Positions 8,442-16,137 of a stretch of 64,000 nt of DNA are shown here, in pieces. A program made the translations under genes and the position numbers. Source of the DNA: Oscillospiraceae bacterium (GTDB taxonomy: Bacteria; Bacillota; Clostridia; Oscillospirales; Oscillospiraceae); assembly GCA_021201735.1 (NCBI GenBank), contig JAJQEJ010000055.1, forward strand, positions 4,650 to 68,649, read 5' to 3'. The number at the start of each line of letters is the position of its first letter. The stretch's first letter is position 1. The notes under the pieces were generated by a model. That model was given only the letters and a program-made list of their open reading frames with translations. It had not been told where the DNA came from and searched no databases.

Positions 8442-11357
8442 ATGTATATTCTTAATCAACTTGCGCTTCCAGATAACTGTGCCGAACGGAACGTCACCCG
8501 ACGGATTCTGCCAAGAAGCATTCCAGGCGGATATCTGGTCTATGCGACCCCTGATTTGTCCACTGTTTTGTATGCAGAGGACACGCTTTCGGCGGCGTTT
8601 ACCGACATCAACAATGACACCAGCGGTATCACCGCGTTTACCGTGGTGGCGACCGGTGATGATGCTGATGTCGGCGAGACTGCGAACCTGACCACGAACA
8701 AGACCGTCACCCTTACATCGCCCGCCGGGGCAAATTCCATTTTGCGCAAGGGCGCGAACGACAGACATATCCTCTTAACCGCAGGGGAGCTTGTGCTCAC
8801 CAACATCACACTCGACGGCAATGGGTTTAGCGGCGGCTTATCCATTACTGGCGCTTCCCTCATCATAGAGGACGGCGCGGTGATTCGCAACAATGTCAGC
8901 ACCGGCACCGGCGTCGGTATCCTGGTTTCTCACGGCACCTTCCTGATGCGTGGCGGAGAAATTTACAACAATATCAACACCTCCGATTTTGGCGCAAGCG
9001 GCGGCGGGGTATATCTTGGCACTACGCTCACGGCGGGTGAATATTCCGGAAGCTACGGCTTTATGGAAGGCGGAAAAATCTATGGGAATCAAAACTACTG
9101 GGGCGGCGGCGTAGCCGTTGGGATTTTCAGCCACTTCACGATGTCCGGCGGCGAGATTTTTAACAACCTTGCGACCAATGCCGGCGGCGTAGATGTATAT
9201 GTCAGAGCGATCTTCACCATGAATGGCGGAAGTATTTACAACAATACCGCTGCCTCCAGTAGCGGCACAACCGGATCCGGCGGCGGCGTATTTGTGGGGC
9301 AAGGAACCCATGTGGCCGGTGAACCGACGGACTGGTGCAGATTCATCATGAACAGCGGCAGCGTGGAGGGCAACAGCTGCATTACCGGTGGCGGCGGCGT
9401 TGCGCTGATCTATAACGGGCAGATGGAGATGAACGGCGGAAGCATCTCCAATAACCGCACCAGCAGTGCCGGTGGCGGTGTGCTTCTTCGTATCGTAGAT
9501 CGGACGGACTTAACCACGCCGATGTACTTCAAAATGTCAGGTGGCACAGTGTCGGGCAATGAGGCCAGATTCGGCGGCGGCATCTGCCTGTATGATTATG
9601 ACGTGATATCCTTTGCCAAAGAAGTTATGCTTACGATAACCGGCGGGGTGATTACAGGGAACACGGCCACACCCCAATATGGCGGCGGGATTGTTGTGGT
9701 AAGGTATCCCACAAACCCTGACACGGTCACCTTTGAGATCGGCAGCCCAACAGAAAGCGAAACCGCCGCGCCGGTAATCAGTGGCAATCAAGCTGCCACT
9801 ACCGGCGGCGGTATCCAAATTTTAAATGTCACGCTTACCATGTATGCCGGTATGGTCAGTGGAAATGCAGCGGTAGACAACGGTGGCGGCATTGTTGTCT
9901 CCACAGGGAGTACACTCATCATGCCTGGAGGCTCCATTGAGGGAAATACTTCGGGTAGCAATGGCGGCGGCATATGGGTCTCCGCCAGCGGGACAGCGAA
10001 CCTCAGCGGTGCAACCACGATCATCAATAACACCGCCACAAACGAGGGCGGCGGAATCTATACGGCGGATTTTACAGACTATGCAAACCTGACCGCGAGC
10101 GACTATCAAAATATCACGACGGCAAACACGGTTGTGTTCGGCGGAAATTCCGCTTCGGCGGCTTATGAGCCGCCCGCCATCGCGTCCAGCTATACCAATA
10201 TCGGCTATGCATCCACCAGCATTGTGGGCAGCGGTGGCTTTCTGAACCCGATTAACAACTACGATATCAACTATGTCTTCCCGCCCAGTCTTCTTGTTTA
10301 CGCGGTATCTTACAATGCAAACGGCGGTGTCGGCAGCTATCCGACGGAATATTTTGTGGAGGGCACCGAATATACAGTGCTCTCGCCGGAGGAGACGGGC
10401 ATCAGCCGCCCGGGTTACACCTTCACCGGCTGGAATACCCAGCCCAACGGCACCGGAACCGCGTACCAGCCGGGGGATACCTTTGTGATTACTGAAGATG
10501 TCAACCTCTACGCCCAGTGGGAGGCGGTCGCAGGCACGGTCTCCGTGCTCTATGATTCCAACGGCGGTACCGGCAGCCATGCGGATGTAGGCCTTCCCAT
10601 CGGGACAGAATACACCATTCTCACACCGGAGGAGATAGGAATCAGCCGCCCGGGCTATACCTTCGTCGGCTGGAATACCCAGCCCAACGGAACCGGCACC
10701 GCGTACCAGCCGGGGGATACCGTTGTCTTGACCGAGAATCTGATCCTATACGCCCAGTGGGTCACCGTCCTGGGGCCCTACGATGTGCTCTACGAAGCCA
10801 ACGGCGGCACCGGCATCTTTGTGGATACCGGCATTCCCGGCGGCACGATATACACCATTCTCACACCGGAAGCGACAGTGATCAGCCGCCCCGGCTACGT
10901 CTTCACCGGCTGGAATACCCAACCCGACGGAAGCGGCATCACGTACCAGCCGGGGAATACGGTGACGATCAACGAGAATCTGACGCTCTACGCCCAGTGG
11001 ACTCCGATGATGGTAGCGTTCCATGTAATCTATAACGCCAACGGCGGCACCGGCGGATTTACGGATACCGTGCTCTACGGTACCCTATACGACGTCCTCT
11101 CCTCCTCGGAGGTGGGGATCACCCGCCCGGGCTACACCTTTACCGGCTGGAACACGCAGCCCGACGGCAGCGGCACCGCGTACCAGGTCGGCGATACGAT
11201 CCTCATCACCGGCGACGTGACACTCTATGCCCAGTGGGTGGCAAACGAAGCGCCGGTCCCTCCGGTATGCTGCATCCCGTGCTGCAACATCTGTTGTCCT
11301 CCATGCTGTATACCTTGTACCAACAAAAAGACAAACTGCCATACAAGAGTATGGTAA
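8442..11357 (+). CDS. Beta-helix / Flg_new-repeat protein, no signal peptide, Cys-rich C-terminal tail (paralog 1)
   Basis: 971 aa. The N-terminus MYILNQLALPDNCAERNVTRR has no hydrophobic segment. There are about 550 aa of GGG[IV]-type turns typical of right-handed parallel beta-helices, then 4 Listeria-Bacteroides (Flg_new) repeats (..NANGGTG..GYTFTGWNTQPDGSGTAY..LYAQW). The tail is VCCIPCCNICCPPCCIPCTNKKTNCHTRVW. Confidence 0.85.
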   Translation: MYILNQLALPDNCAERNVTRRILPRSIPGGYLVYATPDLSTVLYAEDTLSAAFTDINNDTSGITAFTVVATGDDADVGETANLTTNKTVTLTSPAGANSILRKGANDRHILLTAGELVLTNITLDGNGFSGGLSITGASLIIEDGAVIRNNVSTGTGVGILVSHGTFLMRGGEIYNNINTSDFGASGGGVYLGTTLTAGEYSGSYGFMEGGKIYGNQNYWGGGVAVGIFSHFTMSGGEIFNNLATNAGGVDVYVRAIFTMNGGSIYNNTAASSSGTTGSGGGVFVGQGTHVAGEPTDWCRFIMNSGSVEGNSCITGGGGVALIYNGQMEMNGGSISNNRTSSAGGGVLLRIVDRTDLTTPMYFKMSGGTVSGNEARFGGGICLYDYDVISFAKEVMLTITGGVITGNTATPQYGGGIVVVRYPTNPDTVTFEIGSPTESETAAPVISGNQAATTGGGIQILNVTLTMYAGMVSGNAAVDNGGGIVVSTGSTLIMPGGSIEGNTSGSNGGGIWVSASGTANLSGATTIINNTATNEGGGIYTADFTDYANLTASDYQNITTANTVVFGGNSASAAYEPPAIASSYTNIGYASTSIVGSGGFLNPINNYDINYVFPPSLLVYAVSYNANGGVGSYPTEYFVEGTEYTVLSPEETGISRPGYTFTGWNTQPNGTGTAYQPGDTFVITEDVNLYAQWEAVAGTVSVLYDSNGGTGSHADVGLPIGTEYTILTPEEIGISRPGYTFVGWNTQPNGTGTAYQPGDTVVLTENLILYAQWVTVLGPYDVLYEANGGTGIFVDTGIPGGTIYTILTPEATVISRPGYVFTGWNTQPDGSGITYQPGNTVTINENLTLYAQWTPMMVAFHVIYNANGGTGGFTDTVLYGTLYDVLSSSEVGITRPGYTFTGWNTQPDGSGTAYQVGDTILITGDVTLYAQWVANEAPVPPVCCIPCCNICCPPCCIPCTNKKTNCHTRVW
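10299..11237 (+). repeat. Four tandem ~78-aa Flg_new (Listeria-Bacteroides) coding repeats in paralog 1
   Basis: Each unit starts Y/F-x-V-x-Y-x-x-NGG and ends LYAQW. The units are very similar to each other at the DNA level. Confidence 0.8.
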
Positions 11358-11365
11358 TCTGACCG

Positions 11366-11403
11366 CAAGAGGGGCATGGTGTACAATCGCCGTGCCCCTC
11401 TTG
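11366..11403 (+). terminator. Hairpin after paralog 1
   Basis: A 14-bp stem, CAAGAGGGGCATGG / CCGTGCCCCTCTTG (one G-U pair), with a 10-nt loop. No U-tract follows. Confidence 0.5.
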
Positions 11404-14627: not shown

Positions 14628-14667
14628 GGATATCAATAATACATACATACTAGGGGTGAATCATCAT

Positions 14668-16137
14668 ATGTCGCAATGTAATCGTTTCCCATATAAGGGA
14701 ACCAACCCCCCGTTTCCCCGCTACAACAACTGCTGGTGCGTACCTATCTCCTGCTGCAACAGCACTGGACAGACAGGAGTTACAGGCCCAACAGGGCCAA
14801 CCGGCGCGACAGGCCCAACAGGCGCGACAGGCGCGGCGGGCGTAAGCAATATTACCGGCCCCACAGGGCCAACCGGTACGCAAGGCCCGACCGGCCCGCA
14901 GGGTCCGCAAGGAATTCAGGGTATCGCAGGCGCACAGGGACCGACCGGCCCACAGGGTCTGCAAGGGATTCAGGGTGTGGAAGGACCAGAGGGCCCGACC
15001 GGCCCACAGGGCCTGCAAGGGGCTCAGGGTGGCGAAGGACCAGAGGGTCCGACCGGCCCACAGGGCCTGCAGGGAGTGCAGGGCGTCGAAGGACCAGAGG
15101 GTCCGACCGGTCCAGAGGGACTGCAAGGCATTCAGGGTATCGAAGGACCTGCAGGTCCGACCGGCCCGCAGGGAGTGCAAGGCATTCAGGGTATCGAAGG
15201 TGTAGCGGGTCCGACCGGCCCACAGGGCCTGCAAGGCGTGCAGGGTGTGGAAGGTCCAGAAGGCCCGACCGGCCCGCAGGGCCTGCAAGGTGTGCAGGGC
15301 CTGCAAGGTGTGCAGGGTGTGGAAGGTCCGGAGGGTCCGACCGGTCCAGAGGGCCTGCAAGGCATTCAGGGTAGCGAAGGACCAGAGGGCCCGACCGGCC
15401 CACAGGGCCTGCAAGGAATTCAAGGTATTGAAGGCGTAGCGGGCCCAACTGGCCCACAGGGCCTACAAGGCATTCAGGGTGGCGAAGGACCAGAGGGTCC
15501 GACCGGCCCACAGGGCATACAAGGTATTCAGGGCGTCGAAGGACCAGAAGGCCCGGCTGGTCCGCAAGGACTGCAAGGGATACAAGGCGAAGAGGGACCA
15601 GAAGGTCCGCAAGGTGTTCAAGGGATACAGGGTCCCGCAGGACCGCAGGGCATTCAAGGCGTCGAAGGCCCACAGGGCCCGTCAGGCGCTGAGGGTGCCA
15701 CAGGAGATACCGGTCCCACCGGGGCAAACGGCGCGATTCCCAGCGCGGTTTTTCAAGCCGATCTCTCCGCCTCCGGCAGTACTTTTGAGGTGACGGTGGG
15801 GGACGTCATTTACCGTTTAGAAGTTGTCAACACCGCGGAGCTGAGGTTATTGATCCTGCCCGCCACCGCACCGGTCCTGATCGATTTGAAGCGTTTTGGT
15901 CAATTTGACTCTGGTGGTCTTGATGCGACTACCTTGGATAACTTTACGCTCTCCACCAGCGTAAATATTGATACCGTCATATTCAATTCGTCCAGAGAAA
16001 TGCACAGGACCTGGCTGCGGCAGCAGAGTCCTGAAACCGGCTTGTGGTCCTTGGACGAAATAGACCTTTTTGTTTCCAATGGCAGTGCCAGAATCACCAT
16101 CTGGGTATACCAAATCTTCACGAATGTAAGCCTTTGA
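14668..16137 (+). CDS. BclA-like collagen-repeat protein (candidate exosporium/spore-surface filament)
   Basis: Start chosen at the ATG at 14668 (RBS AGGGGTG 9 nt upstream); the ORF track starts at the GTG at 14656. The Cys-rich N-terminus is [30 protein letters not shown]. About 107 G-X-Y triplets follow, then a 134-aa non-repetitive C-terminal domain. No signal peptide. Confidence 0.85.
14767..15732 (+). repeat. Collagen-like G-X-Y coding repeat, with a 54-bp higher-order array at 14938-15603
   Basis: 322 aa of GXY with one non-Gly triplet (NIT). Inside it are 12 units of the 18-aa pattern [18 protein letters not shown]; unit 7 carries two extra triplets. Confidence 0.9.

Follow-up and report, generated by a model that had tools for sequence, protein, structure and literature searches.

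In Bacillus endospore appendages (ENA), the N-terminal connectors of Ena1 and Ena3 cross-link through cysteine (PMC11362473, PMC12357932). At the tip of the L-ENA, the fibrillum protein L-BclA bears a C13C14 motif which has been proposed to couple it to Ena3A (PMC11362473), while a candidate for the tip protein of the S-ENA in the Bacillus cereus group, AGE80398.1, presents a five-cysteine N-terminus with a CC motif and no exosporium leader (PMC12357932, PMC11362473). Cysteine-rich disulfide lattices involving CsxA, CsxC, CdeC, ExsY and CotY have moreover been described as a general principle of the spore envelope, strict anaerobes included (bioRxiv 10.64898/2026.09.03.749163). Here, a comparable arrangement is described for a 64,000-nucleotide stretch of DNA (hereafter the window) from an Oscillospiraceae bacterium (assembly GCA_021201735.1, contig JAJQEJ010000055.1). 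The stretch encodes two large paralogous beta-helix proteins, A and B, each ending in a dense cysteine tail, followed by a collagen-like protein with a cysteine-rich N-terminus. We assign a probability of roughly 0.55 to the reading that all three are SigK-made proteins of the outermost spore layer, with the cysteine-rich termini serving as their disulfide anchors.

Cysteine-rich tails of the two beta-helix proteins

The products of genes A and B (Table 1) share 84% identity and end in ...VCCIPCCNICCPPCCIPCTNKKTNCHTRVW and ...VCCIPCCNICCPACCVPCTNKTTNCHTRVW, respectively, sequences which can be written jointly as V-CCIP-CCNI-CCP[PA]-CC[IV]P-C-TNK[KT]TN-C-HTRVW. The original prediction, made from the DNA sequence, had counted 10 cysteines within 24 residues in each tail, and the cysteine positions in both open reading frames (ORFs) agree exactly with that count. 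In A, these are residues 943, 944, 947, 948, 951, 952, 955, 956, 959 and 966, and in both proteins they form a strict array of period four followed by two single cysteines, (CCxx)x4-C-x6-C. Outside the tails, a six-frame scan of the whole window detected no 24-residue stretch with more than six cysteines, and the six-cysteine stretches lie in non-coding frames. Over their full length, genes A and B have diverged with a dN/dS of 0.20, compared with 0.09 in the tail, which is thus under purifying selection between the paralogs, and all tail cysteines are conserved even though their codons differ synonymously. Because of this low ratio and the retention of every cysteine through synonymous changes, the tails are real, translated and selected. 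A tail is also present in a related metagenome-assembled genome (MAG), where it reads VCCIPCCNVCCPPCPPRCSPCINKLTNCHTRVW.

The tails are attached to proteins of otherwise familiar architecture. Four Flg_new/InlB B-repeats (PF09479) were detected in each protein, scoring 180 bits in A and 186 bits in B, above the curated cut-off, and the same test returned a TIGR02543 match of 93 bits. The N-terminal 620 residues of B were modelled by AlphaFold2 as a beta-solenoid with regular short strands (pLDDT 89, pTM 0.90), for which the leading fold matches in the PDB were all right-handed beta-helices (pertactin, tailspikes, PL6 lyases and EtpA), although weak ones (E >= 0.007). The families PF13229 and PF02415 are carried by homologs, whereas in A and B Pfam itself assigned no Beta_helix domain. 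Neither protein has a signal peptide, an LPXTG motif or SLH domains.

Two further features of these proteins deserve mention. Residues 1-27 (8442-8530 in A and 11510-11600 in B) are predicted to be disordered, with pLDDT below 50, and contain one conserved cysteine (LALP[DE]NC) that also occurs in the ortholog of the related MAG; this residue could be a second attachment point. In addition, the junction at which the beta-helix passes into the first Flg_new repeat (window positions ~13190-13340, residues ~560-610 of B) is strongly conserved in all family members as GGGIYT..DYQNI.T..F.GN.A..PP...NI.YA.TS...HP[IL]NNYDIN[YF], providing a useful marker for a large family of Clostridia surface proteins.

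When compared to the Ena1A, Ena1B and Ena3A connectors, the tails resemble them in being flexible terminal peptides containing CC, and the connectors form intermolecular disulfides that link spore-surface subunits. Those connectors, however, are N-terminal, contain one to three cysteines and belong to polymerising jellyroll subunits of ~10-12 kDa, whereas the tails described here are C-terminal, contain 10 cysteines and terminate beta-helix/Flg_new proteins of ~100 kDa, with no sequence relation between the two. A similar comparison applies to ExsY/CotY, CsxA/CsxC and CdeC/CdeM, which share the strategy of dense cysteines and employ it for cooperative disulfide cross-linking in the outer spore layers. 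In these lattice proteins the cysteines are spread over a folded, self-assembling domain, while here they are confined to an unstructured appendix of 24-35 residues on cysteine-poor domains. Such lattice proteins are the likely docking substrate of the tails.

Replacement of a wall anchor by the cysteine tail

The locus includes its own internal control in the form of a vegetative-type paralog, which possesses the signal peptide and SLH domains of a wall-anchored protein that A and B lack. This paralog shares 36% identity with B over 919 residues and is collinear with it from the beta-helix cap to the last ...TLYAQW, past which the SLH domains follow in the paralog and the cysteine tail in B. 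The cysteine tail holds the position of the SLH wall anchor at the same junction. Upstream of the paralog a sigma-70-like promoter, TTTACA-17-TATACT, is found at 19918-19890.

The tails resemble SLH and LPXTG signals in their C-terminal position among paralogs and, presumably, in fixing the proximal end of the protein, and since they stand where the paralogs have a wall anchor, an anchoring role is favoured. SLH and LPXTG proteins, on the other hand, need Sec export and become attached to the cell wall, whereas the cysteine tails carry neither signature. Exported proteins of Firmicutes are depleted of cysteine. The occurrence of the tails in the absence of Sec export is in keeping with this depletion and forms a further part of the argument for covalent anchors.

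Promoters of the three genes

In B. thuringiensis, the promoter of the exosporium gene bclA, SigK-dependent by experiment, has been reported as CAC-N16-CATATGTTA (PMC4750369). In the window, the exact pattern AC-N17-CATAnnnTA occurs five times, compared with 0.71 expected, and none of 100 shuffled sequences reached five. Three of the matches end 41-49 nt upstream of the start codons of A, B and the collagen-like gene, so that each of the three genes has the SigK-type pattern (AC-N16/17-CATAnnnTA) at a suitable distance. The unit duplicated between A and B starts at the -35 element. In the related MAG, the -35 and -10 elements before the beta-helix and collagen-like genes are unchanged while the spacers have diverged, and each of the three window genes has a promoter and a hairpin of its own.

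Two other exact matches were recorded. One, AC-N17-CATAGAGTA (32857-32884, + strand), lies 47 nt upstream of an ORF at 32931-33620 encoding 229 residues with only a weak match to the PdaC domain, which may be another sporulation gene. The other, AC-N17-CATAACCTA (17614-17641, - strand), falls inside the SLH paralog, on its coding strand, and recurs in the related MAG at 11393-11420 (- strand). It is probably a chance match held by coding constraint, an internal sporulation promoter being the alternative.

Cysteine tails across the protein family

The distribution of the tails was assessed in two samples, namely the 120 best homologs of B and 82 complete family ORFs from genome and metagenome scans. 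Cysteine-rich C-termini, for example ...PCCCICIPCCCLCRPCRNPCGCECRPC, ...PCCCKCRPCCNRCCCKCRPC, ...PCCVPCCKPCHVPCCK and ...PCCCMCNPCCCICNLCC, occur in eight of the 120 homologs. All eight lack a signal peptide, as opposed to 25 of the 112 others (Fisher p = 1.7e-5), many of these 25 having the appearance of truncated gene calls, and the homologs with a signal peptide end in SLH or in LPXTG/sortase/transmembrane-type anchors. Among the complete ORFs the association recurs, with 10 of 11 cysteine-tail ORFs leaderless versus 14 of 71 others. A full SigK consensus within 200 nt upstream was found for 4/11 and 2/71, respectively, and one of these two non-tail ORFs ends in a short tail, ...CRPKKKCCC.

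Two tail styles can be distinguished: C-x-P-C-C, which includes the window tails, and DCC/CRPKKK. The latter comprises DCC, 10-12 hydrophobic residues, CRPKKK and CCCKxCCK, and it is found in four tandem genes of L003 as well as in L062 and L091, the genes in L003 and L062 having a promoter close to ACCgAAtaTAAGATagTgCATAAAAT. These three loci (L003, 2-12917; L062, 4450-6678; L091, 1-540) are metagenome contigs of 37-38% GC, L062 and L091 originating from termite gut, and carry the second style on leaderless beta-helix/Flg_new and DUF11 genes. Second-style tails, in which CC borders the short hydrophobic run and CRPKKK with poly-Cys/Lys comes after it, resemble a degenerate transmembrane-plus-basic sorting signal, and it could be supposed from this that the tails in general are membrane or lipid anchors, inserted in the outer forespore membrane or lipid modified, that is, tail anchors for mother-cell proteins. 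The window tails have no hydrophobic segment whatsoever, though, and the run in the second style is too short to span a membrane. A position under the coat would also conflict with the outermost exposure needed for the presumed adhesin or nap role of large beta-helix and collagen proteins, and S-acylation at motifs of this kind is not known as an established pathway for bacterial proteins. Taking these points into account, membrane or lipid anchoring is quite improbable.

The density of cysteines, their CC, CxxC-like and CxC spacings and a histidine near the end (NCHTRVW) would also suit a metal-thiolate cluster (Zn, Cu(I) or Fe) of the metallothionein kind, either as a small capping knot or for metal storage or detoxification on the spore. 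Nonetheless, no match to a metallothionein or other metal-binding family was detected in Pfam or NCBIfam, the tails are rich in proline, isoleucine and valine, and they occupy the place of an anchor domain in paralogs. Cysteine spacing differs widely among homologs, so that no conserved ligand geometry is visible, which likewise makes a metal cluster improbable. Keratin-associated proteins, in comparison, act as a disulfide cross-linking matrix. In the high-sulfur members, CCXP repeats, including CCVPX pentads, are the hallmark tandem repeat (PMC4929423), and this tandem motif, present in KAP2 and others of mammalian hair, is the same as that of the tails, making a disulfide cross-linker their nearest motif analogue. 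Keratin-associated proteins are eukaryotic and built of the repeat throughout; the likeness, one of motif, is best seen as convergence without homology. The original prediction had recognised the exact cysteine motif in no characterised family, a view which has to be revised in light of these repeats and of the five-cysteine CC N-termini of ENA tip collagen-like proteins (PMC12357932, PMC11362473).

The tails are modular: besides Flg_new repeats they follow DUF11 domains in L003 and a pilin-like FctA domain in L014, in every case on leaderless proteins. L014 (5209-8216) belongs to a termite-gut Oscillospiraceae MAG and consists of a leaderless beta-helix/Flg_new/DUF11 ORF and two short ORFs, the last of which has the FctA domain and ends in KYCPKPCLCFKRCCEKMCCTRVC; assembly errors may have split a single gene into these three. 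The tails are rare, and among 54 loci from species-representative genomes, L014 was the only one with a convincing cysteine tail, and in L008, the closest relative, the contig ends before the tail position. A word-based search with the 44-residue tail yielded no candidate.

The collagen-like protein and its N-terminus

The collagen-like ORF (14668-16137, + strand) encodes 489 residues and no signal peptide. Its N-terminal peptide does contain five cysteines within the first 30 residues, as had been proposed, at positions 4, 22, 24, 29 and 30, and these are all the cysteines of the protein. The G-X-Y region spans residues 34-357 (324 residues) with one short interruption at residues 61-63. It is followed by a C-terminal domain of ~130 residues that AlphaFold2 models with 10-11 strands at moderate confidence (pLDDT 70.5). 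A Foldseek search with this model returned no PDB match at E < 0.001 and none of the C1q/TNF-like kind, sequence and profile searches found nothing in the PDB, and Pfam reported no BclA-C/C1q-TNF-like domain (PF18573). Homologs of the domain exist in P0121, P0122 and a Solibaculum collagen-like protein, and a distant jelly-roll relationship may be considered for this head, with the pLDDT of 70 in mind.

In several respects the protein parallels L-BclA and AGE80398.1, being leaderless, with a short cysteine N-terminus containing CC before the stalk and a globular C-terminal head. For both of those proteins expression in sporulation is known, and the corresponding observation here is the SigK-type promoter match. 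Unlike L-BclA, the head is not detectably BclA-C or C1q, the host is a member of the Clostridia (Oscillospiraceae), and the neighbours are large beta-helix proteins with cysteine tails of their own in place of an adjacent Ena (DUF3992) or ExsL gene. The flanking genes at this locus are A, B and the SLH paralog, which leave no space for an extra gene between them. The collagen-like protein has the leaderless N-terminal connector of the L-BclA type and, as judged from these flanking genes, no linkage to Ena or ExsL.

Exosporium leaders of the BclA kind have an LVGPTLPPIPP-like motif, which is absent from the N-terminus of the collagen-like protein. The BclA leader, which docks to ExsFA/BxpB, is comparable in being a short terminal targeting peptide on a collagen-like spore-surface protein under SigK control, but it has no cysteine and a different motif, and its attachment is not cysteine-based. 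The N-terminus reads CWCVPISCC in the window and CCCVPISCC in the ortholog of the related MAG. One block of it is conserved between the two, and the other cysteines vary in number and position (C4F, Y9C and W23C).

The N-terminus had been thought to share a CC[IV]PC module with the tails of A and B. This claim did not survive closer inspection: the strict motif is absent from the N-terminus, local alignments with the tails did not exceed composition-preserving shuffles (p = 0.09-0.57), and 2.2% of shuffles produce both C[IV]P and CC. Tails and N-terminus are alike in composition (cysteine and proline), in terminal position and in regulation, and not in a demonstrable shared sequence module.

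The two cysteine regions might be unrelated, with only the tails of A and B serving as anchors and the CC/CxC of the collagen-like protein forming an intra-trimer cystine knot that registers and staples its chains. In collagen III, a cystine knot at the end staples three chains in this manner. The lack of significant similarity to the tails would agree with such a knot, and the CC doublet lies four residues before the collagen start. Cysteine clusters directly preceding the first G-X-Y triplet are also found in other collagen-like proteins, several from Bacillus and Paenibacillus (CRHCCSCCCCCPTCGG, SCCNGHG and RICCIQG), the CC standing right beside the collagen start in the unrelated P0127 (SCCNGHG) and P0129 (RICCIQG), and Bacillus proteins with a BclA-C domain have YCGCN...SCCFSC at this place. 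Yet the equivalent CC of L-BclA, a protein without any other anchor, has been proposed to couple the fibrillum to Ena3A (PMC11362473), and the collagen-like protein described here similarly has neither an exosporium leader nor another visible anchor. The shifts in cysteine number and position between close relatives noted above are better suited to a cross-linker than to a knot. A purely intra-trimer function is therefore rather unlikely, and the two roles of knot and docking are not mutually exclusive.

Proposed role of the cysteine-rich termini

In the scheme of disulfide anchoring favoured here, A, B and the collagen-like gene would be transcribed late in sporulation under SigK in the mother-cell cytoplasm, and the proteins would lack signal peptides because they are made there. 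The C-terminal (CCxx)4 tail of A and B and the N-terminal CxC...CC peptide of the collagen-like protein would act as covalent anchoring tags. Their dense thiols, chiefly the CC doublets with oppositely pointing side chains, would form intermolecular disulfides with a cysteine-rich spore layer or among the tagged proteins themselves. With the proximal end fixed by the tag, the outward-facing part would be the beta-helix in A and B and the globular head, borne on its stalk, in the collagen-like protein. This scheme is favoured because terminal cysteine connectors and cysteine-rich lattices are established building principles of spore surfaces, in strict anaerobes as well. The low dN/dS of the tail and the cysteine clusters ahead of the first G-X-Y triplet in other collagen-like proteins also speak for it. 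The anchoring principle itself is not new, and to the L-BclA-like kind the collagen-like protein adds a further member. As for the tails, full-text searches of the literature turned up no publication that connects spores with Flg_new proteins or with a "cysteine-rich tail", nor any description of a dense C-terminal cysteine tail replacing SLH or LPXTG on large leaderless proteins of the beta-helix/Flg_new, DUF11 or pilin-like types whose genes have SigK-type promoters.

The suggestion, made by analogy with Ena connectors and with ExsY/CotY lattices, of a docking or cross-linking tag on the spore surface has thus gained in some parts and lost in another. In its favour are the SigK-type promoters kept in the relative, the missing signal peptides, the exchange of SLH domains for a tail, the association of tails with leaderless proteins including those with DUF11 and FctA domains, and the Tgl gene described below; the motif supposedly shared with the collagen-like protein had to be given up. 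These features are shown by the sequences, as are the anatomy of the proteins and the selection on the tail; from them we infer SigK dependence, the spore-surface location of the tagged proteins, their disulfide chemistry and the identity of their partners.

Several points weigh against disulfide anchoring at the spore surface. The host is presumably a strict anaerobe, which bears on the timing of disulfide formation. Dependence on SigK is read from consensus matches, and the capacity to sporulate, within these 64 kb, from Tgl and the promoters. No basal-layer gene of the cysteine-rich CotY/ExsY/CsxA/CdeC type is present in the window. A profile built from six tails, when searched against 1.84 billion representative proteins, recovered only two of its own inputs, P0012 and P0001, so the tails are not traceable as a sequence family with HMMER. 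The second style hints that some tails may work differently. Finally, since the collagen N-terminus resembles the tails no more closely than its composition would lead one to expect, a common docking site is conjecture.

A broader proposal can be put forward tentatively, in which the cysteine-rich termini would constitute a portable sorting and anchoring signal for the spore surface in gut and termite-gut Clostridia, the mother-cell counterpart of LPXTG and SLH. Vegetative wall-anchored adhesins would then have been turned repeatedly into spore-surface adhesins by three swaps, comprising the change from a sigma-A promoter to a SigK promoter, the loss of the signal peptide and the replacement of the wall anchor by a cysteine tail. 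Covalent docking in one and the same cysteine-rich basal lattice would hold both the tails of the beta-helix proteins and the N-terminus of the collagen-like protein, unless they are joined to each other as a composite fibre. Collagen-like genes were not found within 6-10 kb of the cysteine-tail genes in L001-L005, L014 and L062, so the adjacency seen in the window is not a conserved operon-like rule.

Genomic context

The window genes glnA, purF, dapF, ftsH, pcrA, purA, the fab genes and nrdR identify the region as ordinary chromosome, and the nearest named relatives are Oscillospiraceae MAGs. One related MAG, L006 (GCA_965298985.1), which is the source of the comparisons made above, is syntenic for glnA, purF and the beta-helix, collagen-like and SLH-paralog genes. 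Leaderless beta-helix and collagen-like proteins are common in phage tail fibres, and the fold matches of B include tailspikes, so that a tail-fibre or prophage origin had to be weighed, as did decay of vegetative surface-protein copies that have lost the signal peptide. Both are very improbable, in view of the chromosomal housekeeping neighbours, the lack of phage genes among the ORFs scanned, the synteny with the related MAG, and the intact ORFs with low dN/dS (overall and in the tail) and dedicated, conserved promoters. Context and synteny were the grounds for rejecting a prophage or tail fibre as the source, and dN/dS and promoter conservation those for rejecting pseudogene decay.

A gene for Tgl, the spore-coat protein-glutamine gamma-glutamyltransferase, lies further along the window; against NCBIfam NF002869 its product scores 296 bits, just under the cut-off of 307. 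Upstream, an ORF of 262 residues (44389-45177, - strand) with no family match shares 4 nt at its stop with Tgl, and the two probably form an operon, upstream of which no clear SigK consensus was seen. Further Flg_new/SLH surface-protein genes at 35485-39226 (+), 41042-43498 (-) and 45833-48169 (-) make the window a surface-protein island. Within the first of these, a frameshift may have divided a single gene into the overlapping ORFs 35485-37077 and 37007-39226. Just past the SLH paralog, an arylsulfotransferase (ASST) family gene (20217-21962, -) is preceded by a perfect sigma-70 consensus, TTGACA-17-TATAAT, at 20189-20161.

Table 1. Features of the locus, with positions counted from the first nucleotide of the window.
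Feature	Position	Strand	Remarks
SigK-type promoter of gene A (ACCGGTTTGATCTGCACTACATAGAATA)	8366-8393	+	-35 AC, 17-nt spacer, -10 CATAnnnTA; 49 nt upstream of ATG
Gene A	8442-11357	+	971 aa, no signal peptide; ~27 disordered residues at the N-terminus, then beta-helix, four Flg_new repeats and Cys tail
Cys-rich C-terminal tail of A (CCIPCCNICCPPCCIPCTNKKTNC)	11268-11339	+	Followed by HTRVW and stop codon
Hairpin after gene A (GCAAGAGGGGCA...TGCCCCTCTTGC)	11365-11404	+	Likely terminator, read from sequence
SigK-type promoter of gene B (ACCGGTTAGATCTTTGCCGCATAGAATA)	11434-11461	+	Pattern search
Gene B	11510-14428	+	972 aa, leaderless paralog of A; beta-helix, Flg_new repeats, Cys tail
Cys-rich C-terminal tail of B (CCIPCCNICCPACCVPCTNKTTNC)	14339-14410	+	
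Hairpin after gene B	14436-14475	+	17-bp arms; likely terminator, read from sequence
SigK-type promoter of collagen-like gene (ACCTGTAAGGTCATCGCGACATATGATA)	14600-14627	+	Pattern search; also in L006, with changed spacer
Cys-rich N-terminal peptide of collagen-like protein	14668-14766	+	5 Cys; directly precedes first G-X-Y triplet
Collagen triple-helix region	14767-15738	+	PF01391, 164 bits (Pfam)
C-terminal globular all-beta domain of collagen-like protein, with stop codon	15739-16137	+	AlphaFold2 model
Strong hairpin between convergent collagen-like and SLH-paralog genes	16185-16220	.	16 bp; listed by the scan on the - strand, which has the T-run
Vegetative-type paralog (internal control)	16389-19805	-	1138 aa; signal peptide, then beta-helix, Flg_new repeats and SLH domains, without a Cys tail
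Tgl, spore-coat protein-glutamine gamma-glutamyltransferase	43565-44392	-	Pfam PF20085, 298 bits

Implications for the spore surface of gut Clostridia

Uncultured Oscillospiraceae and related Clostridia are dominant in gut communities and pass between hosts as spores, the surfaces of which are almost entirely uncharacterised. If the proposed role is correct, the locus names candidate spore-surface adhesins and supplies a search signature for others, composed of a missing signal peptide, a SigK promoter and a cysteine-rich terminus. It would also illustrate the re-targeting of a vegetative surface protein to the spore through exchange of promoter, leader and anchor. The cysteine-connector principle of Bacillus ENA fibres would then extend to large non-polymerising proteins and to C-termini, and spore display in anaerobic commensals could make good use of a covalent tag only 24-35 residues long.

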